DNA of 58,879 nucleotides, filler included, from Sphacelaria rigidula (GCA_964200075.2; 7 parts of 7 records of this genome joined end to end with filler, not necessarily neighbours in it); one strand, 5' to 3'; counted from the first letter of the whole stretch, positions 102 to 55,067 are shown. The notes: generated by a model not told the origin, from the sequence alone. Numbers and translations: made by a program.

Positions 102-212
102 GGGGGATGGGGCGGGAATTGTACTCATGATCTTGCATGCCATAGTCATAAGACCATTGACCTCGCATCCCCACAAAGCTGGGACGGAGCACGCCGGGTT
201 CTCGCCGGATCA
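102..212 (-). mobile_element. Poly(C)-tailed mini-element, subfamily A
   Basis: Same ~105-bp core at 8130-8248(-), 16853-16911(+), 42875-42980(+), 49989-50096(-), 50406-50454(+). Confidence 0.85.
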
Positions 213-1132
213 GGCTCGCACTCAATCACCAAGCGCGAAGCGCCGGGACGTCCTCGAAGAGTCGCATGAAGGATGAGCTGCATCCTGCTAGTTTTGTTCG
301 GTACGAAGCGTACTGATTTTCTTGCATTTGGATAACAGAGCCTCCAATGCTGCTTCATTTTCTTGTATCACCATTACCAGAGACAGCTACGGCGTACATA
401 CTGCATCATAGGTGCCTTACCATTCAAACACTACGTAGTATGATCACTCATTTTGCGCGGAGCTGAGGTTCTCCCACCCCCCACAAAATGATTTTACAAA
501 GTCATTGCCAACCGACTCAAACCCCGTAGGGGGGAAGGGGGGTGCGGGTGGGGTAACGCTTCAGATCAACACGTGTGTGCTTGCTGTTGCCAAAGCGAGG
601 GGTACTCCGAGACACAAAATCTCTGCACGACAAGCAGAGAAAACTTCAAGATGCGAAAAAGCACCCAAACAAAGTACAGGATTTGGAGCGCTTGCCCATA
701 CTGTGCTGCACGCAAATATTGAAGTTGGGGACTATTATGGGGAAGCGAGCGTGTTTCTGGTGGGGTTGCCCTCATAGTCCTTTGACCTTGCGACCCCCCT
801 CAGGATGCACGACGATGACTGCTGTTGTGGGGAGTTTGAAAATTTGGTTTAGAATCGTTCTCGATGATGGGGGGGAGGGGGGGTGAGTAGTGGTCGTTTT
901 TGTCTAATTTTTGCGCGTTCTCCATGCAGGTATTGTTTCCCATTTTACGTAGTTTGAAAGCGTGAACGGCTTTTACCCCAACTTGTTGTTCGTTTCCACT
1001 TACCAATTGGAAACGCGGATACCCCCCCACAGACTCAGTCGTAACCGCCGCTCGTTCCATTCCCATTGGGTTATGGACAGCGTTCAATACTGCAAAAACT
1101 GTGACTGCACTGCATGTAGATGATGATTCTGC

Positions 1133-1302
1133 CATACCCTGGACAATAGAATACACGGTCGAAAAACGCACTGCGTACAGTATGGAATCTATTGTCTATT
1201 GCCTGCGTACAGTATGGAATGTATTGTCTATTGCAATAGACAATAGATTCCATACTGTACGCAGTGCGTTTTTCGACCGTGTATTCTATTGTCCAGGGTA
1301 TG
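1133..1302. mobile_element. Foldback MITE, hAT-type
   Basis: Perfect ~70-bp inverted arms starting CATACCCTGGACAATA, perfect 8-bp TSD GATTCTGC (1125-1132 / 1303-1310), internal 32-bp tandem duplication. Confidence 0.92.
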
Positions 1303-3230
1303 GATTCTGCTAATCTTGGGGGTTATCATGATAGTTATCGAGATGCTTTTCCTGGTGGCATGGCACCGTGTGATGAGATTGTGGAATGTAGGGCGTGGAC
1401 CCAAGCACTGTGTATTGCAGCTTTCCCTTTGTACAAGTGGACAATGGGGGGGGGCAAAGTGGATTTAAAATTTAAAAAGCACCCCCATCGTTAGCAACGG
1501 CCATCTGCAATCCTCCAAATTTGGTCGCTGAGAGGAGGGTTGGGAAAAGCGAAAGGATTTGTATGACGTTCCTGTACACGGAGGACTAGCCGGGACTATT
1601 TCGCGGCCAAGCCGCATGCTACCATTTCGCAAGCGGCAACGAGTCTGCTTAAGCAAATAAAGGAAAGGATACACTGATGTGCCGGTCATTGCTACCCACC
1701 CCCCGATTGATTTCCGAGGGGATTGCACCGAATAAAACATGGGCTACAGGTCAACACCGTGCCCTCCCCTACTTCGACCGCAATAGGGTACGGCAGTGCT
1801 GTACTTGAGCGTGCAACATAACGCAACTGTCAGAGGAATTACAGTTCCGACACAAGGCCTTGTGCTTGGAGTGACATAATAACATCTTCCGGTAAAAGAC
1901 GCCGTACAAGATCACTGAAAGAAATGAGATGTTCAAACATACCTCCCAACAGCACGCCAGAAGCCATGAAATGTTCGAAAGCGTAAAAGCGTTGATCATA
2001 TGCCGTACATCCAAGCGCAACTACAAGAAGAAAAAACAAAACGGGTTGTGTACCCCTCGCCCCCCTTCTCTAGTCCTGATTATTATGTCGTTCATTTTCG
2101 GTGAAACGCCGAAAATTCTTTGCGGCTTCATTCTTCTCGTTCTCGTTGAAACTGCAACGAACCTGTACACTCCGTGCTACACCTTGACATGCAGCAAAAT
2201 ATATCCTTTAAAACTCTTGACGGTTTCGTCTTGCACTGTTTTCCTTACGCGGCGAGAATTGGAGCGGATTGATTATCAGTTACTGCCTAGTAGCTTCCCC
2301 TTTCCTGACTCTGCAAAGCCCCAATTCTCACCCATAGCACCTGAACGTGCGTGGTCGAGCGTTTTCATCGACACACGAGGCAGATAGGGTCACCCTTGGG
2401 GGCGTCGGGAATACAGAAACTTTAGGAACCGACAACGAACCCCAAACCATGCACACAACGCCGTGCAATCTACCTGCGTCCGCGAGTGCTGCTATTAATA
2501 ACCACAAGGACGTCTGGGCTCCCTATCGTGGTAGTGGTATAAAAGATATACTCGGGCACCTACGCGCGATATTATCAGAAAATGAGGGGAAAAAAAGAGA
2601 AACGGAAGCGTAATCGGAAATTTTTAATGTCAAGCTAAGACCATGAATAAATAAGGAGGAATAGTTCTGAAGTTTCTCGGAAGCTAGGGATATAGATCCA
2701 TACTTGTATTGAATCGCGTGGCTTCGAAACGTACTTCAGCGATCTGTCGCTCACGTCAGGCGACGCTGGTTTTGCACCAAATCTCGGCAAAATAGAACAA
2801 CCAAAAATGCGCAATTATAAATGGCAAGAGTAAAAAAAGTAAGAAGAGTAAAAACAAAGATCATCGAAATGTCGCTTTGGCTGTGCGCAGCAGCTCCGAT
2901 CCCTTGCATCCGCTGATGAACCAAAGTTCAAGGGTATCTGAAGGCATGCTCGCGCAAGGCGCTTGGATTTCATTCTAAGCAAAGCTACACAAGAAGAAAA
3001 AAAGGGCTCAGGGATTTGAAGCCGTGCTGACCTTTTTTGCTTTTTTTTTCGTCACACTTTCAACCCCGTCTGTTCCTCGCCTTTCGATTTCGTGCTGCGC
3101 GGTGGGTTGGACGGCGGCTGTGGAAGGCCGATAGTGGTCAGGTAGAGGTACGCTTCGGACAGAACATGAGACAATATGAGACATAATGAGGTACAAGGTA
3201 AACGTAGTAGTTTTTGGTGAGTACACTCAC

Positions 3231-3431
3231 GTCATTGTCCGACTGAGTAGGGTACTCTGCGAGGCCCTTGTTTCCCGTGGTGCCGTTCGGGCCTGAATCA
3301 TGCGCTCTTTTCGCGAAAATTGGTGGACATGATCTGCACGGACTGTGGACGCCGTGCCATTGGCGTCGGGGTTGATTTTTGAGTGGTTTGGGCCTAGTGC
3401 GGACAGCTCCAATTTGCGCGTTTACCTGTGC
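3231..3431 (-). CDS. Probable further exon of the RING-finger gene (AQVNAQIG...PTQSDND)
   Basis: acgcag| acceptor, strong |gtgagt donor, 201 bp open in phase 0-0; no recognisable domain. Confidence 0.45.
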
Positions 3432-5949: not shown

Positions 5950-5973
5950 CTGTTTTTTTGCCGGCGGACATTA

Positions 5974-8129: not shown

Positions 8130-8275
8130 AGGGGGAGGGGGGGGGGGGGAAGGGGGGTACTCATGTTCTTGCATGCCACAGTCATGTGACCATTGGCCTC
8201 TCATCCCTACAAAGCTGGGACGGCGCACGCCGGGTGTTCGCCGGACCAGGGTCGGGGGGGGGGGGGGGGGGGGGA
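8130..8275 (-). mobile_element. Poly(C)-tailed mini-element, subfamily A, with G runs on both sides
   Basis: GTACTCATG..CTTGCATGCCA..GTCAT..GACCATTG.CCTC.CATCCCTACAAAGC.GGGACGG.GCACGCCGGG..TTCGCCGGACCA core. Confidence 0.85.
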
Positions 8276-8426: not shown

Positions 8427-8559
8427 CTCCGGGTTCTCATCCTCAATCAAAAGCACCATCCTCAACATAGATGATTGGCTGTTTTCAAGTGAAAAAAAGT
8501 ATGCATAATACAGAGAGACTGAATCTCGCGGTCTAAGGGTTATCGCAAGAAAGGGGGCT

Positions 8560-8860
8560 AGGCAGATGTTGACGCCTTGGAATGGCTCGCTCTACTCGTT
8601 CAAACGTTGCGGCCGTTCCCGGGCAACTTTCCGTTTCCCGCCACCCGCACCTTTGTTTTTGGCCAAACCAGGTCAAATACGGACTTTCAGTATAAAACGG
8701 TCAGGTGATCGAAATAACCCCCTGTTTTTTTATCGCTTGCCCGCTTTTAATTGGAAATCTGTGTTTGACCAAGATTGAAAGTGCAGCCGGCGGGAAATAC
8801 AAAGTTACCCTGGAACGGGTAGAGTTAGTCATTCCCAGGCCTTAATATTGCCCAGTCCAC
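8560..8860. repeat. Degenerate foldback; arm-related sequence again at 16510-16640
   Basis: CCGTTCC(C/A)GGG(C/T)AACTTT..TTTCCCGCC at 8613 inverted to end at 8818, with outer arms also complementary. Confidence 0.65.
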
Positions 8861-10516
8861 TTCTAAGAAGACGGAGAAGGGCCAAAAACGCAGTTTTAAA
8901 ACAGGAATTATGAACGCCCCGCCCCCCCCCCTTACAGTAGGTCACAGTCGGTACTATTTCGTAACTTTTCGCTTGGTTTCGAGTGAAACAAAAACGCAGT
9001 GGACCTACAGGCTCGGGCGTGTATTCATGATTGACAACATGACTACTTGATTTTAGAATTGAGTAAGTTCCAAGAAAATCCATGGTTTGGGGCAGGTGAG
9101 CAGGGGACCCAGCTCGTCCAGAAAGTGTTTTTGTCGAAATCATGTTTCCTTGTCCGGGGGTCTCGTACGTCTTGGCTCGGGGTTAGCGTTAGGATTGTTA
9201 CTTCGAAAAAAAACCTCAGGTCGCCTCCAGAAACGACTTGATCCACATTTCGAAGTGTAGCGTAGATCCACTCGTCCTTCATTCGTATTCGAGCCCGAAC
9301 TCCTTGGATTCTTTGTGGTCGAAAAGATATGTCGAAACTCGAGGGGTTCCAGATGTATTCGTCCGTAAAACTGCTGTGAAATATGAAATATACCGGAAAT
9401 AAGATTTAGAGATACCCCTTCACAGACAGTGACCAACGTGTTTTTACCTTTTTTTGTACCATAGTATCGACAAATGAGCGTGCATCGCCTCTTTTCGTCC
9501 AAATGATCGAAACCATCTGCCTCTGTTTTGAGGTACATGTGCCCTACCCTTTGATTGACTTCAAGCACAACTTTCGGGCCAAAAGGGGTCGGGAGCGGGG
9601 GGCCGGGGGGTGTCTAGCCTGCGCTCAGTAGGGCTGCTAGGGGGTGCTGACCGTTCTATGCTGAGGAGAGTATTCATCTCATTAATCCGCAGCGAACGGA
9701 AAAGGAGGTTGGCCTCCGATTGTGAAAAGACGAAGACATCGAGCTTTACCCTGCACCATAGAAGTTGCCCATATGCAAAATAGTGAGAAATATGGGCACT
9801 CGATACCGCCCCACATTTCATCGTTAGTGCACCCATTTTAGCTGGCCTCCGATCAATCATATTAGGACACCTCATCCCTCAACAAGTTACTCTTCATGCA
9901 AAGAAAAAACGTAATTTCGAACAAGAAAGATGAATGAAACAAAATCGTGGTCGCTATCATGAGACCAAATATGCCGAGCCTTCTCGTAGTTACCGCGTCC
10001 TTCCGTGGGTTCCTCCTCAACACAAAATTTCGCTTTTCGGGCCGTTCGCGGCAGACACCGAGGGCGGGTGCTGCCGCAAGGTGCCCGGTCCGCGTTCGCT
10101 GGCGGGACCAAGGGTAAAAATGAAGCGTGTTTCTTGTACACGGCGAGACTTTCCAGGTTCCGGGTGTCGTGGGCAGGGATATGAAGGATGATTACAAACC
10201 TCCACGAGTATTCGAGGAAGCACCAAATTTTGCATCATCAACCACAAGTCATCAAATCTTTGTCCACGAACGCTCGTAGGGTCATGGACGAGAAGACTAA
10301 ATAACTCATCGTGGAGGACGACAAAAATCCGGATAATCGAGCGGGTGCGGGCGAAGAAGGCAGCTGTCGGTTGTTGAAGAGGTTTATGAGTAGACGGAAG
10401 TCTTCGATATCCAATCAAAGTTCAACAAACCAGCTCGTACAGCATAAAACACCCATGCAGACCTCGTAAACAAGAAGGTGCTGTGTTGATTGTGCGTTCC
10501 TTCTTCTTTCACGTAC

Positions 10517-10663
10517 CTTCCCGCCCGGTCCCGGCTTGTGAGCGCCAGGCTTGTGTTGCTTCTTCTCCTCTTCTTTCTTTTTCTTTTTCTTCTCCTCGTC
10601 GTCCGAGTCACCGCCGAAATGCATGCCGAGGAATCTGCTCTTGTCCTTGGTGTCCTCATCTTT
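10517..10663 (-). CDS. Exon of a small hydrophilic, dehydrin/LEA-like protein (KDEDTKDKSRFLGMHFGGDSDDEEKKKKKKEEEKKQHKPGAHKPGPGGK)
   Basis: tttccag| acceptor, aag|gtacgt donor, 147 bp phase 0-0, highly charged open frame; functional label is inference. Confidence 0.7.
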
Positions 10664-10954
10664 CTGGAAATAAATGAAAGTGGTGCGAGTGTGGCACGTT
10701 TGTGGGCGGTGGGGGTCAGAAGCTACCAGGGTGCTCGTGACCTATTTTGACCAAAGTACAACACGGAACAGCAGGATAGTCGTTGCCCGCATTGTCAAAG
10801 CTACGCGGTGGTACGCTTTCACCTCGCCCTCCTCCCTCGACGAAAACACGAACCAGCATTTTGTGCCCGCAGAATTATATCCGTTGCATGTGCATGCCAT
10901 GATGCATCAATCGTGAACAGTTACTACGGAACACGGTATTTTTCGGCAGAGCAC

Positions 10955-11140
10955 AGTGCGGACATTAAAAGGCAGCACTGCAGCTGGCAGCATAGTACAG
11001 AGAGTTATAGGCAGCGCTACAGCACACCTTTGTACGGACAGTTATAGGCAGCGCTACAGCGCATTTCGGACAGTTATTGGCTGCGGTAGGCGTCTTGGAA
11101 GCTGGATTGCATAACACGGACAATTATTGACGGCGCTGGG
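10955..11140. repeat. Minisatellite (ACAGTTATAGGCAGCGCTACAGC)
   Basis: Four to five degenerate units. Confidence 0.65.
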
Positions 11141-12106
11141 CGCTCGGAGGCGGGATTCGCGTTGGCCGATTCCCTCCCATTTTGATTCAATCAAAACCTA
11201 CCGCATATCTGCGGTAGACCAACGACACGAGCGGACAAATGCACGCCAGTACGTCTCAGGCATTGAACAACACCAGGACCGAGGCTCACCGAGAATAAAA
11301 ATGTAGGCAGCCTTCGGAAGCACGTGCAAGTACTAGGCTGTCTTACGCGCATTCAGCTGTACGCTGTTCCTACAGTTTGGTTGGGTTGCAGAGCGGACAC
11401 TTCGCAGAAAATAGAGCCGGTAGTACGCACAGAAAGTGAACATGTAAGCGGAGCAAATGCTGCAAGAATGATTTCCTCGATCGAGAGATTCGACCCGGAT
11501 GGCCATGATCACTGGAGTGAACATGCCACACATGGGTGCAAGACAGCACCAAAAAAGTACAGCAAGCCATCTACTGCATTCCGACATGTTGCTTCTTCAA
11601 GCAGCTTCGAGCCCCACGGAAATCGATGAGAGCCGAGCCTGCGGCAGCGGATCTGTAACAACAGGATTACTCGCACTGTTGCACGGACAGTAGTACAGCG
11701 CTCACACACAGTTAATACTGTACAACAACCATGCTATGTAGCGTTGAGCCAGACGTCAGACAAGATCTTTACTCATTGTAGCGACACACATCTTGTGAGC
11801 CGGACTGCACATCGCACTACGAAGGACGCAGCATCTTGAGAACACCTGCTTGACTCACCGAAGTAAGCAGTCAGCAATGCAGTATATAGATGTCGCACAG
11901 AGGTCCACACGCTCAGCGACAACATTACAGGATTCCCACATGCAAACCATATGCACGACCCGCCAAGCAACAACAGACACCCTGTGGACGGAGGGATCGA
12001 CTCTGCTGGAACAACGTACGGATGAACGACCAAATGCGCACGGACACATCCATGATGCCAACCTGAACCTTCTCTACCTACTGCTTCAGCTGTCACAATA
12101 GCTTAC

Positions 12107-12124
12107 CTGTCCTGGTCCAGGCAT
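12107..12124 (-). CDS. Putative first coding mini-exon (MPGPGQ) of a small Lys/Glu-rich protein
   Basis: gccATG CCT GGA CCA GGA CAG|gtaagc; phase 0 matches exon 10663-10517, which also contains PGPG. Confidence 0.5.
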
Positions 12125-14127
12125 GGCTACTTGAAAGCTTTGCAGGTGGAGGAAGACTGGAATGGAGCTGCTGTTTTTGCAATGCTCGTCGAAGTGGAGT
12201 AATGAGGAGTTGTGTTGTGCGGGGGTGGGTGGAAAGGCGGGGGTGCGGGGTTGGCGCGTGGCTGTTGCGAGGATTCCAGATTCACGCGGCTTTTCCTATA
12301 TTTTTTTCCCTGTGAACATAAAAGGCCTGCATGCATACATAAACGTACGGTAAGAAGACCCGCTCTATCTGTCCACTATAGTCAAGATATTCGAATCTCA
12401 GGGGTTCATGTATGGAAAAAAAATCGAAGAATAATTTCAAATCCATCCGGTTGCACTCGACGATCCATTGGGTTGCAGTTGGTCAGCGGTATGTTTGTAG
12501 ATGATGTAGAGCAGTCAATGCAGCCCGGTATTGGAAACGGGCATCTACAGGAAACCGGGGATCGAGACGGGCAGCAGTACAGTAATTAATTATCACGATA
12601 AACCAATCACGGGGAGGGGGGGGGGGGGGCAAGAACTTCAATGGGTGGCTAATGGGCGCATTTGGTTTGGGAATCAGAATAAAAGGGAATATTGAACACN
12701 NNNNNNNNNGAGGAAATGAAGAACCGCAGGCACGGGCGACGCGTGAGTGAGACGGGAAGTTGTATTTTACTTTATGTTAACGGGGAAGGGGGGGGGGGGG
12801 GGGGGGGGGCAAGAACTTCAATGGGTGGCTAATGGGCACATTTGGTTTGGCATTCAGAATAATATGGAATATTGCACACTTGAGTCAACGATCCGAATAA
12901 TACTTCTGTTCTATGCGGGATAGAACATCGATACTGTATACAAATCAATTTCAAATCCAGTTTTTCACCGGTTCAACCGGGCCAATCTAACCGTATCTTT
13001 CTTCTACGCCGCTCATGTTGGCTGACTGTTGTGTGCATCCTTCTCGTTGGATCCGTCGACAGTGCAGCCAGTAGAGCACGGAGGTAGTAGTGATGAGATA
13101 TTTCACACCTGTCCGTGAGCGTGTCAAATGTGAAGTAGACCGACGAATTGAGTGCGGTAGAAGTAGCAGCGACGTCTCATGTGAGATCGTCCTTGCTCGA
13201 CCAAGGGCGGTGGGGTAGGCATGTATGAGGCTGACAGGACCTCCAACAGGTAGATACACCTGCCGTGAAAGGTTGTGACATACACAAAATCTGCATGTCA
13301 CAAGCTTTGCCCCCCGTCCAGCCGGTGAGGTGCGGACTGGTGTTTTACTGTGGGACGCATATCTGCAATGCAATCTCGGTTGGCACAGTCACCTCCCAGT
13401 CTTGTAGTTTGCTATTCGGTACTGGCTAAGCTGTTATTCTGTCAACACTCCTACATTTTCCATGTTGGACGTGTCTCCCGGTTGTAGGAGGAGAAGCACT
13501 CCACGGAAGTGCCTCTCTGACTATCCGGGGTGGTTGGTAATCATCTGTTGATGACTCGAAAGCGGTGTCGTTTTTTTGTCGCCAAAAAAGGAAAACGAGA
13601 AGACAGTCAGTATTGGGAGTTCCTTTGATTTATCCTTCGCGAAGTACTTGAAGACGCCACCAGGTGACTCATCCTGGCGATCATAGGGTCAACCTTTAAT
13701 AGCCAGGGGTAATAAACTATGGCCGAATCGCCATCATTTTCCCGTGAAAAGAGCCGAAGACCCAGATCGACGACCCACCCTGCATGGCTGTCGAGGGGTG
13801 AAACGTACGTATAATATTGAGTCACCCCGATTGGCGCAATTTGCCAGTGCCCCCATGTCGTTACCTCGAGCTTGCCGGGGGAAGTGAAGGAGACGGGCAT
13901 GACCAGCTCGTTGAGGCGTACATGTACTATTTATAATGATACACCATTACCCTCACAGGCATGGTACTTCCTTCATACCTCCCTGAAAAACTTGAGTGTT
14001 TCGACATGTATCCACCGCACCGGTCCATTGTACTTCTTGCACTTCAGTTGCATGATGTATTTATTACATACTCAACAGCGTAGAGAGCTACTGTATAACA
14101 GACACAACCAAAACGGGTTTTCCGTGG

Positions 14128-15981: not shown

Positions 15982-17506
15982 ATTAATCGGAATCCCGCCC
16001 TGTTGTTGTTGTTGTTGTTGTTGTTGTTGTCGTTGTTGTTGTTGACTCTTCATATATTTTTACAAATAGTTGCTGACGACTTTGTTTTTGAGGATGAGCG
16101 AGGCTACATGTACATGTCACAGCCAGAGAGTACAATATTGGATTTTTTCCCCCAAACGAAGATAGTTCGACGCATGCGGAGGTTTCCAAGGCTGCTCCTC
16201 AAGAACAAATATATCCGCGCAATTCGTGAAATCTCCTGTTGTCTCCTGCCTGCCGGTGATCTGACAGACTGGGACGCCTCCTTCCTCACGACTTTCATAC
16301 GGGGGGTCAGTTGGTTGAACAACTGATTGATTGATGTCGAGCATTAACTGCGCAAAAAGTATACTTCGTATCCACCTATATAGGTGGATCCTTATTTCCA
16401 CCGTGACCTTTTATCATGACCGATCCCGCGTTGTTTTTTTTCATTCGAGAGCCCACATTTTTTTCATCAGCTGCCCGTTAGGCTACTTCTTATGTATCGA
16501 AAAAAAAAACTTGTTGAAAAGTGTATTTTTGGCCCTTCTCCGTCGTTTTTCCCGCGCACAGAGAACGATCAATAGGCGGCTGTTGACACCTTGGGATGAC
16601 TTGCTCTACTCGCTAAGACGGTTCCAGAGCGCCTTTGCGCTAATCGTAAGTCACAGTTTCGTTTCTGGTCAGACTTGCATTTTGTAGCCAAAATACACCA
16701 AGGCGTAGTTGATGTAGCATGTAGGATCCTGGATGATGACCAGGGGACAAGGNNNNNNNNNNNNNNNNNNNNNNNNNNNNNNNNNNNNNNNNNNNNTTAA
16801 TTAATTAANNNNNNNNNNNNNNNNNNNNNNNNNNNNNNNNNNNNNNNNNNNNAGGGATGCGAGGTCAATGGTCAGATGACTATGGGATGCATGATCATGA
16901 GTACACCCCCCTATATATTGTAGTATGACTCTTCCCTCGATTCCACTGGTATCAGTTGGACCAGTACACCGCCGGGCGCGGCGTGTATACCCCAGTAAAT
17001 CTCGGGTACCACGGAGAACCCAACCCTGATCACCTACCATTGTAATCCTTGCCAGCGGACCCCGTGAGGGTTAGGTTGTTGATCGATTTCATAGATGCGA
17101 TTGACTGTCGCGAACCAACGGATCCAGCACGACTGCGGCCAGGGCCGTAAAGGCAGACGTATCAGTGTTAGATTACTGCTACACCATGCGATACTCGTTT
17201 GTCGAGTACTCTCGAGCACGCACATGGATCACCTCAGTATAGTACTTATTCACATAAGTCCTCTTTCTCATTAATGGCGTTTTTTTCTCTTTTTTCCACG
17301 TGTCTATTCTCCCGAACCGTTTCCAAGAGAGTCAGCCATGGAAGGTTCGCGTTTTTTGCTACCCAGCTTCTTTTTTCGAGGATGCCCATGATAGAAGTGT
17401 GCCCCGATTCGAAGATGGTGTGTGCGTACGTTAGAGCTTGGGTTTCGCGCGGAAGTGCTCGGACTGTACCTCGCGTACATAGGCTTTTACGAGCAAGAGA
17501 ACCCCG

Positions 17507-18574: not shown

Positions 18575-18879
18575 CCCCCCTCCCCCTCCCCCCCCCCTCG
18601 TGAATGATTTCTCACCGACAACTGTGAGTCAACGATTTCCAAAAAAAGTTTTTTTTCTCCGTCATGTTTTTTCTTAGTTTTCTCTGTCTGTTCTACCTTT
18701 TTGTTTCCTAGTGGTCAATGGTCGCACGACTAAGGCAAGCAACAAATGAGTACCCCCCTCCCCCCTCGTGAATGATTTCTCACCGTCAACTGTGAGCCAA
18801 CGATTTCCAAAAAGCATTTTTTTTTTCTCTTATATGTATGTCCTCAGTCTACTCTGTCTGTTCCACCATTCCGTTTCCT
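18575..18879 (+). repeat. ~130-bp direct duplication (18575-18709 / 18753-18879) around a 5'-truncated subfamily B element (18711-18752)
   Basis: Both copies begin at a C run followed by TCGTGAATGATTTCTCACCG. Confidence 0.85.
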
Positions 18880-20236: not shown

Positions 20237-20649
20237 GGTTGTCTATTCACTACTCTTGTACTAATCAAAGCGGAAACAAAACACCGCAAGTGTTTTGAAA
20301 CGATAATTATAAAAAAAATAACAGCAAGAGGGACAAAAGTTACCTTGTGCTCATGTCGTAAATGGCATTCTGCTGGTAGTTTTTCCACGCGTACTGGATC
20401 TCCATGGCTGCAAAACCGTACACGGCGTAGCGGAGATAACGGTATTTATACCTGGTGAACGGGGGGAAAGATGGCAAGGGGATCACGCCAGGGGTCAGGT
20501 ACCTTTCATGAAATGATTACGAGATTCTGATGTATTTGAGAAGGCATTTCGTTGTGAAGGAGGACGATTTTTTATTCTATCGATCTTGCGTGGTTGTTGG
20601 AAACCCTGGAGGATGATCGATAGCTCCTCCTCGCTCCCCCTCCCGACGC

Positions 20650-22700
20650 GTGCAATTCGAAAAAGAAAATAACGCGTGGGCAGAGGAAGATGTAGAGACG
20701 TCAAAACAGGAGGATAGAGGCTCCAAAGAATTGCAGAGAGACTTCACCAGAGATGAAGTAAACGAGTGTGTAGCTACACTCAAGAGCAGAAAGGCAGCAC
20801 GGGCAGGCGAAGTAGTGAATGGATTTCTGAAGTGCGGGGGAGAGGGAATGATTACCATGATGGCTATCTTGTATAACTGAATCTGGGAAAACGAGTACAT
20901 ACCCAAGAGGTGGAGAGGAGGAGTCGTCGTCAATCTTTTCAAAAAAGGAGAAAAGGCTGACCCAGGACACTATAGAGGGATAACGCTACTAGGCACGATA
21001 GGGAAACCATTCTGTAAGATTCTGAACGATAGAGAAGGAACGATGCTAGAAAGGAAGACAAAATCAGCGAGAGGCAAGCAGGATTTGGACCCAACCGTAG
21101 TCGCGTAGACCATGTGTACGCACTAGGCGAGATTATTCAGGGTAGGAAAGACACCGGGTTGACAACGTACTGTTTCTTTCTGGACGTGCGGAAGGCTTAT
21201 GACACAGTATGGAGGAATGGGCTGTGGAAACAGTTGTGGGATCAGAGGAAAGACGTGGAGAATGGTGAAGAAGATGACAGAATGTGCCAACAGTGCCATG
21301 ATGCTGGACGGGGAAATATCGAAATATTTTTTGTTTTTGCGAGGAGTTGCACAAAGATGTACGTCATCACCTACGTTACTCATGGTATTTATTAATGACA
21401 TGATAATAGCAACATAAGCAGTAAAGGAAGGAGTCAAGGTGGCCGAAGATACGGTGTCAGTATCGATGTTCGCGGATGATTTCGTGGGGATACTAGAAAC
21501 ACCAGAAGTATTGCAGACACAGATAGACAGGGCGCTAGAAGACACAGGGAAATGGAGAGTGACAGCGTACGTAAAAACACGCGCGGTTCTTGTATGTAAC
21601 GAAGATAAGAACAATCCGGTAGCGTTCAGATGGAAGTGAGAAGAAGAGAATCTACCGATCGTAGACCAGTTTGCATACCTTGGCGTAGAGATGAAAATTA
21701 ATTATTTTTGGGACAGACACAAAAATAAAGTAATAAAAAGAAGTAAGGTACAGATAGGAAGGATGGGCGTTGTCCTCAGAGACTCGCACCTTGATACTAG
21801 GAGTAAGAGATGCATCCTGATGGACGTGACTGTACCAAAGCTGGAATATGCAGGAGAAGTATGGGAGGGGAACGTTGAGGTTGGTGGAGAAGTTGGAAAC
21901 AGTACAGATGGTAGCAGCTAAGAAGATACTTGGATGCTCGGAAACGACAAGTAATACAGCATTGAGAGCAGAGTTGGGAATGTACCCACTTAGAACAAAA
22001 CAGACGCATGATAAAATTGACATGGTAATATAGCATAAATAACACGCAGAGAAAGATATCGCCAGTCATAACTGATAGGGCTGTATGGAAAAAAATGGCG
22101 AAATGGCAAGCTGGAACACGGTGGGATAGAGAAGTCGAAAAAGCATGGAAGGAGATGGGAGGGAACCAAGACGGAATACTGTCAATAGGTGAAGGTAGGG
22201 GGTACAAGGCAAAAGTAAGAGGCATGCTAGAAATAAGGGGAAAAGAAACGCGTAGACGCAAAGTAGACGAGGAAGAACACCTGAACATATGCGGCGGGTT
22301 GAGAGAGGGGATAGGGATGAAAACATATCTGCATTGCCCGATGGAAGCAGCGAAAAAAATGAACCTGTGATTCCGGGTGGGGGACTTGGACTTGCCAGAA
22401 AGAAGAAAGAGATATACCTGCAGTCGAGAGGAGGAGAAAGTAAATGCACAGGATTGCCCCTCTGGCAAAGTAATAGAGAGCAGAACTCATATAGTGGCAG
22501 ATTGTGAACTATAAAAGGAGAAATGAGACGTGCTCGAGGGGGAAATGCGGGACATGGACGAAGGCGGCACTAAATCATTCGATGCAATAGACAGTAGGGA
22601 GAAACCGATGACCATAGTAGAAGATAAATGGTGGCCACAAACGGCGAAACAGGACGGGGATAAGATATGTAAAAAGGTTTTGGTGTAACGTATGGAAGAA
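20650..22700 (+). pseudogene. Reverse transcriptase (LINE ORF2) pseudogene
   Basis: ORF fragments 20650-20880, 21114-21417, 21439-21639, 21691-22033 and 22095-22370 join into one RT with several stops and frameshifts. Confidence 0.9.
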
Positions 22701-23226
22701 ACGTAATGAGCACCGACATCTTGGAGGTATCTCTATCAGGAGTAAGAACGGTGCTCTGTCTCGGACCCCCGCGCTCTTTTCACCACCCATACCGACGCCC
22801 CAGGTAGCTCTCCCAGCAAAGGCGGTTGCAGAACGATCCACGGATCAGAATTACAGAAACTTATACAGGTTCCCCCGGGGGAAATGTTCATCGACCAAAG
22901 CTGTCCCCTGTCTTCTCTTCAGTTGCGCCTGCGTTCTCCTCTCACTTACTTCTTATCTTATTTCCTTTGCTCTTTACTTTCCTCTGTTTTCCTTGTTTGT
23001 GTCAGGTCGGCCATTTCTTTCTGTGCTTTCCTTCCGTTGCACTTTTTTTTTTTTTACATCTTAGTCTACTACGTCGTTTTGTTCGACTTTTTTTTTTCTG
23101 TTCCTTCTTTTCTTCAGCGAGTGTTTCAGTTTTTTCCCTTGGGGACGTCTATTATGAGACCACGGCTGGACCTTTGGGGGGTCAGTTGAAGTGCGACAAC
23201 CAACCAATCAATCGATCAATCAATCT
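20650..23226 (+). mobile_element. 5'-truncated, decayed non-LTR retrotransposon (LINE; RTEX/L2-like layout) with pyrimidine-rich 3'UTR and (CAAT)n tail
   Basis: RT motifs across stops/frameshifts: KKGEKADPGHYRGITLL, RQAGF, FFLDVRKAYDTVWR, GVAQ..SSPTL, MFADD, YLGVE; C-terminal ESRTHIVADC; ends CAATCAATC. Confidence 0.93.
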
Positions 23227-25076: not shown

Positions 25077-25178
25077 GGGGGGGGGGAAGGGGGAGGAGGG
25101 GGGGGCGTTCTCATGTGTTGCTTGCCTTAGTCGTGTGACCATTGACCACGAATCCCTTTCGAGACGGAGCAGGGGGGG
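25077..25178 (-). mobile_element. Poly(C)-tailed mini-element, subfamily B
   Basis: Core between G runs at contig end. Confidence 0.8.
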
Positions 25179-30367: not shown

Positions 30368-31972
30368 CTGTCATGAATCCCAAGTTAGGGGGGCAATCTC
30401 GCTTCAAGCCCTTCACGGCAGGGACAACTACTGTACAACTGATGTATAGTTGCGCTACAACTACTGATCAGTTGCTCTACGGCTGATAACCAGTTGCCCT
30501 ACAACTAATAACTAGCTGATATACAACTTAATAATCAGTCGCCCGACAGCCAATAACGAGTTGCCGTTGAACAAGTCTCGGATGAAAGTGTGATGGCATC
30601 TTTTCCGAGGGTTCGGTCGGAGAGTGTGACGGCAGGTATTGCAAGGGGTCGGTCGGAACCAGTCATCGCTGGTTCGAGTCACCACATCTATGATCTCTGA
30701 GGTCTGAGGTCTGATTGCTAGAAAAAGAGGGAAAAGTTGATCGCGGGTCCAAAAGTCTCCACGTGGGCATATTTTGGCGCTATTCCACGCGTCTGGGGTG
30801 CGCATAACTGGGGCAACGCTGAAAACAAAATGCAGGATGAATTCATGCTGTACGAATCAGATTTACTAAACGCAAGTAATTTTCAGACCAAACACTACTT
30901 GTCCGATCCTTGGTCTACTCGTCTGTACACAACTCCTGGATAGATATCCCTAGGATAACTGTAGATAAGCTCTCGGGACCAAAATATCAGGCCTGAAAAT
31001 GCCTGAATAAAAATTTTAGGGGTAAACTCTGTAGATAAAACTCTCGGGGTGTGAATGAAAAAACAAGATGAGACCAAAACGCCATCTGTATATTGTACAA
31101 ACTCTCGGATGCAAAAAACAACTAAGCCAACTACGTCAGTCGTCGAGCGAAAAAGGCGCCTAGGCAAAAAATTTACTGAAAGTTGTACTCAATTGCCATA
31201 TTGATAGCTGTTCAGGGCGTGAAACCCTTCGACTTCCACGCCATACCCGGTTTTCGAGCAGGCCCACGTATGTACGTGCACAATTTCAATCTCTTTTACG
31301 AACTAAAATTTCAATATTTTCCTGTCCGGGAGGGCCTTGCAGTGAAGATCCGAAAGATTCGACGCCACACGGTCGACGCATTCTCACCCCTTCCTCCACT
31401 TTCCACTCGCCCTCCAGACCCATGCCCGCGGATTCGCCCCGTTGCGATTCTGATGGTCCCGCGTTCGCCGCTGCCGCCGCATCTTCCGCTGCAATATCGT
31501 CATTTTCCACAGCTCGAGGCACTCGTATCCTGCAGTGAGATATGAGATCGTGACCATGGGCAATGTTAGTACAATCGAGAGGCCTCTCTCCAGCTTGCCG
31601 ACTTGTACGCTAAGGTCCAACGCCCTTCGGAGGCAGGTGGAGTACTCACGAACGACAAATACAGTAATGATGATGTTCACAAGGCAGTGGGCGCCTACGA
31701 CGGGGGCGTACTCATTCGTTGCTTACCCTGGTCGTCCAACCTTTCACCATGCATCCCTTTTGAGACGGAGCAACAGGGGAAGGTGGAGATAGACCTTTGC
31801 TCTTGATGCTTTCGCACAATGAGCATAAAATATGCATTCTTGTTTTGCGGTCTTGCACACTAAAATCAAGTGATTGTAACGCCTCGGCGGGGCTTCCGCT
31901 TCAAAATGACCCCTTTTTGAACTAGACACATACTGTATGTATGTATATATATATATATATATATTTTTTTTT

Positions 31973-42874: not shown

Positions 42875-42980
42875 TGGTCCGGCGAAAACCTGGCGTGCTC
42901 CGTCCCGGCTTTGTAGACATGCGAGGTCAGTGTTCCTATGACTACGGGATGCAAGATCATCAATACACCTCCCACCCCCC
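42875..42980 (+). mobile_element. Poly(C)-tailed mini-element, subfamily A
   Basis: Core flanked by ccccccaccccc / ctcccacccccc duplication. Confidence 0.8.
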
Positions 42981-44400: not shown

Positions 44401-45849
44401 CCAGCTGCTGATGAAAATTTGGCCAGGCGAATAATTGTCTACATTCCGCCACACTTCTCCGGGTATGGATCGGAAATGTTCCAAGACCCGTCGGTTGTAG
44501 CTGCTGGAACCCTCATCTGACGTTTGGATGGGCCGACGTGACCCAATTATCATGAAAGTTAGGTCTACTCCCACTCACTTGATGCTGTCAAATCGATTCC
44601 CGCGGTGGGGGTTTTGAACGACTAATATCAACACGTCGGATTTGACGCATCGCTTGTACAAAATGGCCATTAACCACTTTTGGTGAGAATTTTCACCTCG
44701 GCTGCGGAATCTCCACTGAATCTCCAGTGGGACTATACTTTTTTTTTTCGTTTCAATTAAAAAATTTCCGGCGCATGACACTGGCCTACATGACCACGGA
44801 TCGATCGGCCCTGCGTCTGTTGTCTCACCACTTTGATATATTTCATTCCCCCCCCTTTTCTCGAGTTTCTTTTAGCGAGTGTTTTGCCGCTGATTTGGCT
44901 TGGGGACGTTCTATTATCTTGTCACCACGGTTGGATGATTCGTATGAGCAATGCTACGGTAGGGGTTGCACTTGGTGTTTCCGGGTCTCTTTTTTGTAGG
45001 AGACCAAATATATGGGGCTTACTTTGCAAACCTAACCCTCCGGGGACCGGGCTCCCAGAAACATACATGGTGTTTGCACGCAGGAGACTTTTCGTGAACC
45101 GGCATCATTCTCAGTCTTTTTCAAGTAGAAATGATTCCGATTATCAAAATGACCCGTCTGACACCCCGAGCAGCTCCAAGAAACGTTTTCGCTAAAAAAA
45201 ACGCAACCCCGACCGTCGCATTTCTCGCAGCGGATCACCGGATGTGTGACAGAGTCAATCGACCATCAAGCAACCACAAACCCTGACCCGATCGGGCACA
45301 CCGAGAACCGTTGGGCAAGAGGGGTACCGAGGATGCTTCAGCCAAGCGTTTTGTTTCTCCCTTTTTTCTGTTACACTTTCTGACCCCCTGTTGTTCCTCG
45401 AGACGGGTCCGCGGTGGTTCCCAAGGGATGAACCCATCTCTCCCGCGGTAGACGCCTTGCATTTTCGTCTCGCGGATTGGATGATGACCATCCGCAGTCC
45501 CGCACCGTGTCGACTCTCGTCGAAACAAACTCCGCCAACCATTCTCCCTTGTTGCTGTAATAATGACATCCTCGCGCTCTCAAGGGCGGGAATCAGATAC
45601 TGTACCTGAAGGTACTTGTGAAGGGGAAAAAAGAAAAAAGAAAAAAACGCGATATGTCGGGAATCGATCCCGCGTTTTTTTCATCCTAATCGTGCCACTT
45701 GTGCCATCAGACAGACCACCGTGGCAAGGGGCGCAGTATGTGTTGGCAGAGATCATGAGAGAAAAAAAGCGTCCTGCGCACGCTGGCAAGCAAGCAAACA
45801 CTCAGGATTGTCAGCCCCCCCCCCCAAAAAAAAAAAAACTTCAAATGTG

Positions 45850-46066
45850 CAAGGGCAGGTCGAGTAGAGAATACTCAATTGCGGGGTATTGTGAAAGACG
45901 TACTTGAGGTATTCGAATTAGGGTAGAGTCTTCGTAGGAGTCGTACTCCCCCCCCAAAAAACTGGAAAGCGATCTCTAAAACGCTTCCCCCCACCGAATT
46001 TGTCTACTTCAAGTGCGACTTTCAAAATACCCCGCAATCGAGTATACTCTGCTTGACCTGCCCTTG
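45850..46066. mobile_element. MITE with ~50-bp TIRs, hAT-type
   Basis: CAAGGGCAGGTC...GACCTGCCCTTG; 8-bp flanks CAAATGTG / CAGATGTG. Confidence 0.85.
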
Positions 46067-48406: not shown

Positions 48407-48785
48407 CCGGTCGCCCCGGTGCCTCAGTTGGTAAGCTCGAAACCTTTTGGCGGTTGGGTCGTGGGTTCAAATCTCGGTGCAGGAACACCACCTGGGATTT
48501 TTTCTCACAAAATGCCCAACAATAGAGAGCGATTATGTCACACCAACACAAAACTCGACGTAATGGTTGACGAGAGAGAGGGATTGCTGAACCCCTCCCG
48601 CGATAAAAAATGAAGGCAAGCACCGCCGAAGGAAGGTGGAGAACCAAAATAAACAAGAAAGGGAAAAACTCCTGTGTTGACCTCCCTCCTGTGTGACCCC
48701 GGCTGGTGCGCCCACATATACCGAAAGGTGTAGACCGGCGTCCTGAATAGATGGGACGACAGCACACACAACACACACAGCACAC
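48407..48785 (+). mobile_element. tRNA-derived SINE with (CA)n tail
   Basis: A and B boxes (GGTTCAAATC), ACTGAA duplicated at 48401-48406 and 48786-48791. Confidence 0.85.
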
Positions 48786-49158: not shown

Positions 49159-49350
<192 letters not shown>

Positions 49351-49379
49351 TGTTCCGTGGTGTTATTCGGCGTATGCAG

Positions 49380-49529
49380 GTGGCTTCTGCCGTTCCCGAT
49401 GTGCGGGTAAGGTTCACGTCGCCGCACCCGAAAGACTTTCCCGACCAAGTGCTGGAGGCAGTGGCCACGTATCCCAATATCTGCAAGCAACTGCACCTTC
49501 CAGCGCAAAGCGGGAACAGCGACGTGCTG
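49380..49529 (+). CDS. CDK5RAP1: tRNA methylthiotransferase (MiaB-like), exon [50 protein letters not shown]
   Basis: tgcag| acceptor, |gtaaac donor, 150 bp in frame with previous exon; [10 protein letters not shown] and HLPAQSG signature motifs. Confidence 0.95.
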
Positions 49530-49988
49530 GTAAACTATATGCGATCAAGGCTGAAGTTTACCGTTGTAGTAGTAATAGTAATAGTAATACTAGTAGTCGT
49601 GGTGGCATTGTATGGTTGTTGTAATTTTTTTTTCTCTTAACAGGCGCGGGCTTGCTTACCTTTTAATCGCCAGGGTAGGTAGGTCACGTGGGTCTTGCAT
49701 TCGGTAGTCGAGCAAAAAATAATGCCGATTAAAAGTTGCCCATTTTGGCGGTCAAAGGGTTGTTGACGCTTTCACTGCGGGACCCTCTCGGAAAGAATAC
49801 CACGTGGTACTTCGTAACATCTTGAATAAAAAAAAATAGGTCAAATTGCTGTGATCCTCTTGAAGACCTCGTGGATGAGAATTCTTGCCCCAGCATTGTC
49901 GTTCGCATATAGCTGAGCCGCAACCTACTGCCACGCCTTATTTTTCATTGGACGGCCTTCTATCCTTAAGCCATGCAGCACCGGTGAA

Positions 49989-50096
49989 GGGGAGGGGGAG
50001 GGGTGTACTCATGATCATGCATGTCATAGTCATAAGACCATTGACCTCGCATCCCTACAAAGCCGGGACGGAGCATGCCGGGTTTTCGCCGGACCA
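49989..50096 (-). mobile_element. Poly(C)-tailed mini-element, subfamily A
   Basis: Near-identical to 102-212; adjacent G-rich run. Confidence 0.85.
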
Positions 50097-51369
50097 TGGA
50101 CCTTCCTTCTTTTTGTTTCTTCATAAATTGTTTCCGGAACCGATACTAGTTTTACCTTGGCGTGTTACTTGTTCTCCTTTCCTTTCCCTTTACTTATTTT
50201 CGGTTCACTGTGTTCTGTATGTATTTTGCCTCTCCTCCTTGTTGAGCGCCATTTCGCTGGTGTTTCCGGGTGGTGTTGCCTTGGTACGTGTATCATGTGA
50301 GCACAGCTAGATTGCTTGGAGATCCGTTAGTGTACAGCGATCGATGGCATGCCCATTCGCATGAACAGCGGGGTGTTGAGCACATGGCGTTAGTCCGTGA
50401 GTAAGCCCCCCCCCGGCGAGAACCCGGCGTGCTCCGTCCCGGCTTTGTAGGGGCNNNNNNNNNNNNNNNNNNNNNNNNNNNNNNNNNNNNNNNNNNNNTT
50501 AATTAATTAANNNNNNNNNNNNNNNNNNNNNNNNNNNNNNNNNNNNNNNNNNNNGGGTTTACCTAGGGGAATTCGTCATATCCTGGCCTTAAATCTCAAC
50601 TTTCTTAATAATCCCTGAGTTTTTCCTTATCCCTGAGTTCTGATTTGTGTTTTCGAAACTCTCTATTGAGTCGAAGCGATGCATACAATATTGCTGCCAT
50701 AATATATATATTGAAAATAAACCCTGCAACAGTATATTGTTTTCCCAACATGCACACGTAGACAGATAGCACCCTGTGGGGCACGTCCACAAGGTCTAGG
50801 GAAACTGTGCCGTGTTTGCCGCGGGGATTTGGCTGTAGGGTTATTTTTCGCGCCACACAGTACACTTCACAGGGTTTCGTCACCCTGAGTGCTGTTCATT
50901 GTTGTAAATATGCTGTACAGCCTTTATAGCGCACATGCAATATACTTCATACAGCATGGGCATGTTACGGTCAGAAACAAAAGGTGGAGAAGTTGCAGTG
51001 GTGGGAATTGCACTTACAATTTCGAGTCCGAAAGTTCAACCAGGTGTACATTGACCTACCCGATTTGATGTTGACAACGATATGTATCTTGTGCTTCTAA
51101 TAACTATCGAGCAAAAACCTCCATAAACGAAATCATGGTGAAGTGATTTTTTCTAATTATTTAGTTTCTGTCGATAGACACTGGACCGCGGGGTTTTCAT
51201 GAGCTATGTGCATTCATATGCCAGGTATATTCCGTCATTACAGCATCTTTACCGCGCCTGTGGCGGAAGCGTCGCTTCGAAGCACAGGCGTGTGGACATA
51301 CACTCGCAAGCAGTGTGTGGGATCTCTATTCAACAGAAGCTGTTGAGACTTCATCATTTAGCCCAATGG

Positions 51370-51845: not shown

Positions 51846-52649
51846 AATTTACAGATTTTGTACCAAAACAAATCGAATATTTCCAAAAACAAAAATGAAA
51901 TTTTCAAAATTGGGAGGGTCTCTCCACAGGGTTACGTGCAGGGTTTCGACAAAAACGCTATGCGAAATGCTAGTAGAGGTACTAGGGTTTGCAACTGCAA
52001 TGCAGGGTTTCTCACAAAAGACTGTGAAGAACCTTGTGCAGCACGTCCGAGAGGGTGCTATCTGTCCACGTGTGTGTATTGCAGACGCCCATCGCATAGC
52101 TATTGTGCAGCCAATAGCTCTATATTTGAAACGCTCGCGGAGGACATATAGACCGCTTCTGGACTCAGAACAAGATCACAAGACTGCTCCAAGGGCTTCC
52201 TCCCTCACTAGGGCTTGGAGACTTCAAGGCAGATGTTGTTAACATGACACAGTCTTCGTTATCGGAAGTATCTTGCTGCACCTCCGTGGACACATACAAT
52301 GTCAAGCAGTCATGGAAATACTCCAGAGAATATACCATGACCTAATGCCACAACATAAACCTCACATCCACATCTCCTGCACCAACCTGCAGCTCATCAT
52401 GTACCTTTACGTGTACTAGAGGTGGACTACTCTACAGCACCCCCAAAACTCCGCCCGACCGCCGAAAAACGTTCGCTCTGTTCCGTACAAGCTCACGAAT
52501 CTGGCTCACGCCGCTCTCCGATATGCCGTTATCCGCGGCGGCTTGTACCGTCTCCTCCGGCGCAACAAGCTTTTGTTCCGGGGATATGCTTATCGCCAGA
52601 CTTCTTGACAACAACCGCTCGACTGAGGAGTTAACGGGCTCCGCCTGCC

Positions 52650-53204: not shown

Positions 53205-53216
53205 CGCCTCAAATGT

Positions 53217-54354
53217 TCAGCGCGGGACTGTTGCCTCCGATACAGTCTGCTGTACGCCACGAGTAGAAACGACCGGTTCTGGCGGCAGCATCACCCCACT
53301 GCTGGGAGCACCCCCTCCATCGATTGACAATACAGCCCTTGTAGGGTCAGGACTCTTGCCCCCTCCTCGAGGCACCTGTCCAGGGCCCTGCGACAGCTGC
53401 CGTTGTTGCTGCGTGTCGCCGGCCTTCGACTGTCCACCTACAGCATGTTGTGGAGCAGCAGCTTGGCTTTGCTGCTTGCAATCGTTCACGAAGTGGCCCT
53501 TGTCTTCACATGAGAAACAACCTGCACAGCTTGGGCCCGGTTTCCGAGATTTCTCTGAACTGGCTGTCTCACTGCCAGTGATCGCCGTTTTTCCACCATT
53601 CGGTTCGAGCTTTGACCCGGAGATCCAGCTGCCGCTCTTCGGTTTCAGCTGCGGCTGGTCACGGCGCTGTTTATCAGCTGCTTCCACCGCCCTCCATGCC
53701 TCTGCTGCTTTCCGAGCCGTATCATACACGAGCCTAGGGTCCTCTTCTCCTCCCCCTCATGTGTAACATGTTGAACACTTTTGTCTTAAATTTCAGGGGG
53801 GACATGCCGGCGAGCAGTTCCCGCGTAATATTTTGAATGGATCCTGCTTCGAACATCTCGTCCTCGCGGAACGCGCGCTCGATGCTCGCAATTTCAGCAA
53901 AAACCTCCTCTAGGGCACCCCACCGTCCCGTGATTCTACCCATGGCAGTCGGCTCGTTGCCAGCGGCCAACGCCTTCCGCACACCAGCTGCAGCAGCTGA
54001 AGGAAAGACGTATGTATCAATCCAACATTTTGCATGTCGGCCTAGTGCCTCCTTCAGATATTCATCATCGAGTATCGATCCGTCAAATATTGTACGTGAC
54101 AGACAAGCGCGAATGTGCTTCGGCACAAGCTCTGTCACGGATAATAGAGCGGCCTGTACTGTACGCCGCTAATTGCTCAATTGTACAGTTTCTTTGTCAT
54201 TCTTATGCTTTTGAGAAAACCGTCTCGATGCATCTCCACTGAAATGACGTCCGTACTCCGGTGCTTTTAGCGATCCACTTGGCGTAAGTTCAGTAAATTT
54301 AAACGTCACCTCATCGCCTGCATCGCTCACACCACCTTTCCTGTGCGCTGCCAT
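53217..54354 (-). pseudogene. Gag with CX2CX4HX4C zinc knuckle (CFSCEDKGHFVNDC), disrupted
   Basis: ORF fragments 54354-54169, 54138-53734, 53729-53217 separated by a stop and a frameshift. Confidence 0.8.
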
Positions 54355-54764
54355 TCGTCCTTAGCTGCAGGGCAATGCTTCCAGCCAACGTATCCGCCCC
54401 TCCGTTGTTCAACGAGCTGCCTAGCGTTACAGACTGCACACCTGTCTGTGTACAATGCAAAAATAGTTTTGCAGAAAATCTCCGCAGCTGAAAACAAATC
54501 CCTAGAAACCAGCGGGTTCCCTGAAAAAAGATGTCTATTATATATAGATACCTCCTGGACTCAGAACAAGATCACAAGACTGCTCCAAGGGCTTCCTCTC
54601 TCACTAGGGCTTGGAGACTTCAAGACAGATGTTATTCACAAAACACAGTCTTCGTTATCGGAATTAACCTGCTGCACCTTCGTGGACACCTACAATGTCA
54701 AACAGTCATAGCCATACTCCAGAGAATATCCCATGACCTAATACCATAACGTGAAACTCATATC

Positions 54765-55067
54765 GAGTCATCCTACGATAGGGGGGGAGGGGGATATTTT
54801 GGGCCACTTCTTGCACGAAATTCCAAGACAAATCGCCGCTGAAATCAGCAACGGTTGATCGAACGAGCGTATTATAGATAAATAACGCTCACTTGTACCG
54901 ATTGACACCGTTTTGAACCAAATACAAGCGCATCGCGAGTGCGGCAGGTCATCTGACACACTTATCAGCCTTTTTTTCGTGCAATCAATTCCCCTCCCCC
55001 CCCTATCGTAGGACAAGGCAAGCAACAAATGAGTACGCCCCCCCCCACCCCTATCGTAGGATGACTC
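54765..55067. mobile_element. Sola-like MITE family 1 inserted in one LTR
   Basis: TIR GAGTCATCCTACGATAGGGG, TSD TATC; absent from the partner LTR. Confidence 0.92.

Follow-up and report, generated by a model that had tools for sequence, protein, structure and literature searches.

Short repeats at C/G runs in the alga Sphacelaria rigidula: truncated ends of an AP-endonuclease LINE and its probable mini non-coding partner

Eleven short repeat copies lie in a window of 58,879 nucleotides from Sphacelaria rigidula (GCA_964200075.2). This window is not a single locus: it is composed of seven chunks of 8,326 bases each, with N44-TTAATTAATTAA-N44 spacers between them. The copies fall into two subfamilies, A and B. 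The copies of B are most probably 5'-truncated copies of an autonomous long interspersed nuclear element (LINE), and those of A a mini non-coding partner of this LINE, both being inserted by target-primed reverse transcription at C or G runs; a probability of about 0.8 is given to this reading. A first-pass annotation of the window had described a poly(C)-tailed, non-autonomous retroposon and had linked it to Chlamys-clade Penelope-like elements (PLEs). Its orientation is kept here, with ...CATGAGTAC(A/G) as the 3' end.

The identity of subfamily B is given by the element that it terminates. When metagenome contigs were scanned for the 3' motif conserved among the copies, three loci were returned. 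In all three, a long conserved sequence precedes the B sequence, which, together with C8-C11, terminates a long open reading frame (ORF). This ORF is 1,426 residues (aa) long in locus L003, the contig of which ends before the 5' flank of the LINE, and 1,253 aa long in locus L001, in which it runs off the end of the contig. Pfam matches in the 1,426-aa ORF are limited to Exo_endo_phos (6.7e-13, residues 235-461), Exo_endo_phos_2 and RVT_1 (1.1e-30, residues 807-1056), with no match to GIY-YIG. The element ending in the module is a LINE because it encodes an AP-type (apurinic/apyrimidinic) endonuclease and a reverse transcriptase (RT), and no GIY-YIG domain. The best solved relative in the PDB is human L1 ORF2p (3e-22), with R2 proteins next, and the ESM Atlas returns a generic answer, endonuclease-RT. 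The nearest named homologues are Ectocarpus sp. proteins (59-66% identity), and a C-terminal Cys/His motif, CxCx8Hx4C, is present in the LINE translations. The family displays the features of an APE-type LINE, namely a non-LTR-type RT, an AP endonuclease ahead of it, and a fixed 3' end, 5' truncation and duplications without long terminal repeats (LTRs) or terminal inverted repeats (TIRs).

The LINE stop codon is the TGA of ...AAC AAA TGA GTACG, in an end that reads ...AAATGAGTACG-(C)n, and the 3' untranslated region (UTR) of the element is therefore 5 nt long. The B sequence is the final ~65 nt of the LINE coding sequence, and the B copies are therefore 5'-truncated LINE ends. In tblastn, the last 18-19 aa of the LINE protein match the B copies at 6012 and 25077. 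The same 3' side is common to inserts of 24, 42 and 65 nt, the 2.1-kb copy described below excepted. Of the 20 best homologues listed, 16 carry the peptide ...G(C/R)VVNG... at most ~10 residues from their C-terminus, down to ~40% identity. The corresponding codons (GGATGCGTGGTCAATGGT) are the core of the repeat module, which fits a conserved 3' recognition element selected at the RNA level too. The absence of an ORF, stated in the first-pass annotation, is thus wrong for B, and the outcome that it had set against its own model, an ordinary LINE 3' end, holds for this subfamily. Upstream extension, which it had suggested as a way to a PLE or LINE ORF, leads in the metagenome loci to a LINE ORF ending in the same sequence and to no GIY-YIG domain.

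The autonomous partner, said to lie outside the window, is represented in it by a 2.1-kb fragment at ~20640-22763. This copy is 81% identical to L003 over 2,119 nt and 62% identical at the amino acid level over 20650-22764 (tblastn and nucleotide comparison), with 30-51 stops in each frame. The AP-type endonuclease is seen N-terminal to the RT in the metagenome loci; the window copy is truncated 5' before that domain. On its 3' side, the last ~60 nt of the element are missing and GACCCCCGCGC comes next, an exception to the fixed 3' end. Pfam analysis of the 10 longest of the 59 stop-to-stop frames of at least 130 aa in the window revealed no RT or endonuclease; the LINE copy was missed by Pfam and found by tblastn because frameshifts break it.

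These domains bear on the model of the first-pass annotation, according to which a non-autonomous retroposon is moved by a Chlamys-clade PLE (GIY-YIG plus RT) targeting (C)n. An insertion bias to (C)n/(CA)n and non-autonomous partners are described for Chlamys PLEs (PMC8557442). Chlamys-9/N4 of Chlamydomonas displays 5'-truncated insertions at (C)n with a median of 128 bp (PMC9977147), Chlamys PLEs are present in Ectocarpus (PMC12477816, Table 1), and head-to-tail copies, which are found in the sequencing-run contigs, also speak for this model. In the element that ends in the module, however, an AP endonuclease precedes the RT and GIY-YIG is not matched; the B sequence lies in the reading frame of the LINE ORF, and the tandem copies are split by C-rich spacers. 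The link to Chlamys elements is left unsupported by these domains, and the model, contradicted for B, is highly improbable.

All eleven copies of the first-pass annotation were recovered at its coordinates by blastn, using five of them as queries against the window (E down to 1e-36). An nhmmer profile of the shared 3' module matched the 10 module-bearing copies and nothing else in the window at E<0.01; the eleventh, 50406-50454, is a 5' part only, without the 3' module. The division into two subfamilies is borne out, with pairs 80-92% identical in A and 74-85% in B. The copies sit in chunks 1, 3, 4, 6 and 7 (blastn, nhmmer): contig 5 is devoid of copies as had been stated, but so is chunk 2 (empty stretches 8427-16752 and 33705-42029). 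The copies, the LINE fragment and the duplications are listed below.

102..242, minus strand: A copy, with 3' module 121-191, head 192-212 and C-rich tract 102-120 (blastn; nhmmer E 3.3e-19)
213-242: probable 5' extension of the A copy 102-212, common to many genomic copies and equal to the loose-end contig consensus
6012..6090, plus strand: B copy corresponding to the final 65 nt of the LINE ORF (tblastn, 79-84% over the last 19 aa), continued by G and a C-rich tract, with C10 located 11 nt upstream
8130..8274, minus strand: A copy (8157-8248), C-rich on both sides in element orientation (plus-strand G runs 8131-8156 and 8254-8274)
16853..16911, plus strand: A copy, 5' part lost at chunk edge, followed by C6 and a terminus of repeat X, which resembles a miniature inverted-repeat transposable element (MITE)
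18575..18709, plus strand: upstream target-site duplication of the 18711 insert, starting with a C-rich run
18711..18752, plus strand: B copy, 5'-truncated to 42 nt
18753..18879, plus strand: downstream target-site duplication of the 18711 insert
20640..22763, plus strand: degenerate 5'-truncated LINE copy (RT and C-terminal region), C-rich tract directly upstream
25077..25178, minus strand: B copy (25107-25171), 29-nt C-rich tract at the 3' end, at least C7 upstream, then chunk edge
31702..31772, minus strand: B copy, then G and C5
42861..42980, plus strand: A copy (42875-42967), flanks CCCCCCACCCCCCC and CCTCCCACCCCCC
49989..50099, minus strand: A copy, 3' C-rich tract (plus strand 49989-50005), present in sequencing runs X1, X3 and X4
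50406..50454, plus strand: A copy, 5' end 6 nt further in than usual, C9 before it, 3' part lost at chunk edge
54991..55013, plus strand: upstream target-site duplication of the 55014 insert, a C run and TATCGTAGGA (E 8e-5)
55014..55037, plus strand: B copy, 5'-truncated to 24 nt, inside a terminus of repeat X
55038..55061, plus strand: downstream target-site duplication of the 55014 insert

Copy 16853-16911 begins at the first base of chunk 3, and copies 25077-25178 and 50406-50454 run up to the final bases of chunks 3 and 6, respectively. The shortening of these three is a sampling artefact because all of them touch artificial chunk edges, and the only biologically 5'-truncated short copies are 18711-18765 and 55014-55050. 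The rule that shortened copies lose only their 5' side is true of these two and fails for 50406-50454, the 3' end of which is missing. Directly upstream of the latter, at 50396-50414, GTGAGTAAG followed by C9 resembles the element's last 9 nt together with the C tract; this may represent a very strongly truncated copy in tandem.

Subfamily A shares its 3' module with the LINE end (78-84% over 50-80 nt). Compared with the LINE module, TCGAAA is replaced by CCGGCTTTGTA, one base is added near the end, a TAG occurs in the LINE frame, and a 5-nt indel is present. The module of ~70 nt is joined to a head of ~20-50 nt (TGGTCCGGCGAAAACCCGGCG...) that is unrelated to the LINE; the A head and repeat X are absent from the three metagenome loci. 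Four of the five window A copies with a visible 5' end begin with TGGTCC/TGATCC, the fifth starting 6 nt further in. As in a short interspersed nuclear element (SINE), the 3' part of the partner LINE is present in A; a tRNA, 5S or 7SL head with an RNA polymerase III (Pol III) promoter is absent. ARAGORN found 0 genes in the window, and Rfam returned neither a match at gathering score in the whole window nor one at E<=1 in the stretch 60-330 (hammerhead, tRNA, 5S and 7SL all absent), in agreement with the earlier report of no Pol III boxes. A 25-mer specific to A had 0 matches in genome contig collections and 0 in viral ones.

The abundance of A is visible in contigs of four sequencing runs placed on 49300-50454, a stretch of 1,155 nt with two A copies. 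Between 9,467 and 54,928 contigs per run fall on this stretch, piling up at the two A copies, with single contigs on the unique flanks. The summed depth at the two copies is 10^5-10^6 times that of the flanks, a ratio that is not a copy number. A copy number of the order of 10^4 is indicated because distinct contig numbers and the six A copies in 58 kb point there, and this abundance fits a short non-autonomous partner. The consensus of loose contig ends past the 3' end of A consists of a long homopolymer run. On the 5' side, the largest contig groups show a C run then AGCC|TGGT, and others a C run then GCTGATTGAGTGCGAGCC|TGGT. Many contigs join A copies head-to-tail via C-rich spacers of 9-34 nt, an arrangement that repeated insertion into the adjacent C runs would produce. 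Subfamily A is read as a non-coding derivative, short and very abundant, that the LINE protein presumably copies in trans; the term "non-autonomous retroposon" hence stands for A and not for B, which is the end of a LINE ORF.

The association with C runs was assessed at 13 observable 3' ends, those of 10 window copies and of the three metagenome loci, taking at least 5 C in the next 8 nt as the criterion. A C tract adjoins 12 of them, with a window background of 3.4% (binomial P ~3.5e-17), so the description of a GAGTAC(A/G)-like end running into a C-rich tract holds for 12/13 ends; at the exception, 102-212, the C-rich tract begins 4 nt later. On the other side, 5 of the 11 observable 5' ends directly adjoin a C tract (8130, 42875, 50406, 25077 and the 2.1-kb LINE copy). 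Two further inserts are surrounded by duplications of unique sequence that open with a C run, of 23 nt in one case and of 135 vs 127 nt in the other. The first is the 24-nt insert 55014-55037, flanked by CCCCTCCCCCCCCTATCGTAGGA and CCCCCCCCCACCCCTATCGTAGGA. In this filled repeat X, Cn-TATCGTAGGA is duplicated around the insert; four insert-free X copies possess a single Cn-TATCGTAG(C/G)ATGACTC and act as paralogous empty sites. The second is the 42-nt insert 18711-18752, between 18575-18709 (135 nt) and 18753-18879 (127 nt), both opened by a C run and 96% identical over the first 54 nt (E 2.6e-23) and 82.7% over 127. According to the two duplications and the four empty paralogues, the C tract is mainly target: it is mostly the start of a target duplication and not the element-encoded poly(C) tail of the first-pass annotation. 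Its preference for C/G homopolymer runs is supported, and so is its proposal of target-primed reverse transcription, by the fixed 3' end, the 5' truncation and the target-site duplications.

The same duplications bear on an origin of the copies as a DNA transposon or MITE, or as chance similarity. Small size and high copy number would suit a MITE. The copies are devoid of TIRs (2-3 of 14 terminal positions match), a point on which the first-pass annotation was right, and their duplications vary in length, from within the C run up to ~130 nt. One end is constant, B shows homology to a LINE ORF, and blast E-values go down to 1e-36. The likelihood of such an origin is practically negligible.

A homopolymer that opens each of two duplications around an element is the geometry of L1 with A-rich targets, and three integration steps are therefore inferred for the LINE and its partner. 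The bottom strand would be nicked in, or at the end of, the G run. The 3' end of the G run would then prime cDNA synthesis at ...GUACG, probably paired with read-through C residues from the C run downstream of the donor. The top strand would be cut downstream at a variable distance: a cut inside the run would yield an insertion with C on both sides, and a more distant cut a duplication, 23 to at least 130 nt long, that opens with the C run.

Several observations weigh against this reading, some of them concerning the C tracts. Copy 102-212 is found between diverged duplications, 8-97 and 294-383 (alignment score 101 vs 21.8 +/- 4.1 in shuffles), the upstream one without a C tract and the downstream one cut by the chunk start. 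Some C tracts may come from the element or its transcript because of this upstream duplication. At copy 49989-50096, a C tract is present on the 3' side, and neither a C run upstream nor a duplication was found. In the four runs on 49300-50454, none of the 15 joints listed out of 64 skips exactly this insert, as an empty allele would. Its filled form is present in X1, X3 and X4, because contigs cover one or the other insert end with few or no differences; in run X5 the insert is not well covered. Tract lengths also differ between the two copies of a duplication. These three features (the bare upstream duplication, the one-sided tract and the unequal lengths) would be accounted for if the C tracts were a tail made by the element, either RNA-templated or added by the RT, without a pre-existing target. 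Such an origin is quite unlikely, since a C run opens both copies of two duplications, the run already exists in four paralogues of the 55014 site that lack an insert, and nearly half of the observable 5' ends adjoin a C tract.

Other difficulties concern the ends of the elements. In a third kind of contig, A extends at least 30 nt further 5' with the sequence of window 213-242. Many genomic A copies continue at least 18-30 nt beyond the ~105-bp unit. Because of these extensions, the unit that the first-pass annotation took for the element is the commonest form but may not be the complete element, and A may be longer than assumed. With the extended copies in mind, among them 102-212, A might belong to a second lineage of autonomous LINEs, as its 3' untranslated end, known almost exclusively from heavily 5'-truncated copies. 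A recurrent 5' end does not speak against this, as one is possible in true LINE fragments (three of five B copies). In the largest contig groups, however, the consensus 5' of A passes into a C run after 0-30 nt, and the TGGTCC/TGATCC start recurs in most window copies with a visible 5' end. The A head is unlike the LINE and the three metagenome loci, and tblastn with the LINE protein gives no match upstream of 102-212. A second LINE lineage is on this evidence unlikely, and A is preferably read as a mini partner of the LINE that ends in B.

For B itself, three of the five copies begin at an identical base (TGCTCC...), which random truncation does not predict. The TGCTCC boundary is common to these copies and to the head/module junction of A, and the recurrent start could reflect a separate 70-nt B mini-element or a hotspot. 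Full-length LINEs with a B-type 3' end have been seen only in metagenome contigs; in the S. rigidula window the B end is not seen on a LINE because the LINE copy there is devoid of its last ~60 nt. A hairpin is predicted in the 3' module, but 0 of its 14 pairs are compensatory (RNAalifold), so that it adds no support beyond conservation.

LINEs and SINEs with a common 3' tail form other classical pairs. An Ectocarpus example is RTEX-N1_Ec32 with RTEX-1/2_Ec32, in which a short element shares the LINE 3' tail (PMC12477816). Subfamily A resembles RTEX-N1_Ec32, as described there, in being short, abundant and non-coding, and in joining an unrelated head to the 3' end of an autonomous LINE. It differs in length, ~100-120 nt vs ~600 bp, and in that its shared part is LINE coding sequence and not 3' UTR.

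APE-type LINEs targeting microsatellites are Waldo (ACAY)n, Mino (AC)n, Kibi (TC)n and Koshi (TTC)n (PMC3812793); the target list given in that paper comprises ACAY, AC, TC, TTC and TAA, and no mononucleotide C. Compared by enzyme and target, these elements and the LINE described here share an AP endonuclease, target-primed reverse transcription into a simple repeat, and a repeat adjoining the 3' end of the element. Sequence-specific elements of this type are the nearest known kind. In the present case, the target is a (C)n/(G)n mononucleotide run, the duplications are long (up to ~130 nt) and of variable length, and the host is an alga, Ectocarpus proteins being the nearest named homologues. 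The family shares with Chlamys-9_cRei/Chlamys-N4_cRei a (C)n target, very short 5'-truncated insertions, non-autonomous partners with a common 3' part, and tandem copies. The Chlamys enzyme, in contrast, is described as an N-terminal GIY-YIG with RT, where an AP endonuclease with RT is found here. The likeness looks like convergence on the same target and not membership; the (C)n bias is a feature common with Chlamys PLEs and does not define the family. The first-pass annotation knew of no such family in brown algae, which is partly out of date: the 2025 survey of transposable elements in Ectocarpus lists, besides Chlamys PLEs, "very short abundant non-autonomous" LINE families (PMC12477816). 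Among the papers listed in the literature searches, none describing a (C)n-targeting LINE was found, and the Ectocarpus survey was the only one on brown algae; its library may already contain this family or a close relative.

Other repeats are found in the window. Repeat X, of ~255 bp, looks like a MITE: it occurs as inverted pairs (14146-/14352+ and 54781-/54991+), each terminus being Cn-TATCGTAG(C/G)ATGACTC. Its sites are 14128-14385, 19285-19545, 54766-54985, ~54930-55075 and 16906-16935, with a further one in L003 just downstream of the LINE (+ ~75-104). Its subterminal C runs host three insertions of the LINE family (55014, 16853 and the LINE in L003). A second MITE-like family is represented by a ~215-bp element at 17506-17717 and 45849-46066, which matches itself in direct and inverted orientation and has the termini GCAGGTCGAGTAGAG...CTCTACTCGACCTGC; C11A13 stands before the copy at 45849. 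Two 89-nt copies, 12611-12699 and 12791-12879, are 92% identical and 180 nt apart, with an N10 gap at 12700-12709. Both open with a plus-strand G run of 19-22, the other strand reading ...CCATTGAAGTTCTTG then a C run. The pair may represent another retroposon tail associated with a C run, repeated in tandem, or else an assembly duplicate left uncollapsed next to the gap. C runs are directly joined to A runs at 45815-45838 (C11A13), 58168-58194 (C6TC9A11), 26043-26069 (C22A5) and 45948-45961 (C8A6). Unrelated dispersed repeats comprise 36642-36991 vs 48407-48765 (82% over 360 nt) and 52146-52368 vs 54542-54764 (88% over 223 nt), and the stretch 49160-49262 is strongly repetitive.

With the reading preferred here, a very abundant short algal repeat is explained as LINE tails and a LINE-dependent mini element, and not as an orphan Penelope-type retroposon. 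Repeat annotation needs the identity of the LINE tail because copies of ~100 nt are easily missed or misclassified. Integration would proceed by ordinary target-primed reverse transcription, and no new kind of mechanism is opened; mononucleotide (C)n is added to the simple repeats targeted by AP-endonuclease LINEs. Two unrelated retroelement classes, LINEs and Chlamys PLEs, would have converged on one homopolymer target. Only tentatively can the family be proposed as the first (C)n-specific pair of a LINE and a mini-SINE that makes its own targets, the target being common with Chlamys PLEs by convergence. In such a process, each insertion would duplicate the C run and read-through transcripts would carry one, giving new C runs and head-to-tail arrays. 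The window contains 24 pure G/C runs of at least 8 in 58 kb, where a rough estimate from base composition, made without a tool, gives ~1. If each insertion truly duplicates its target, the family could drive G/C homopolymer abundance and be a source of intron-size and structural variation. The making of its own targets, if true, would help explain the common G/C homopolymers in the S. rigidula genome.

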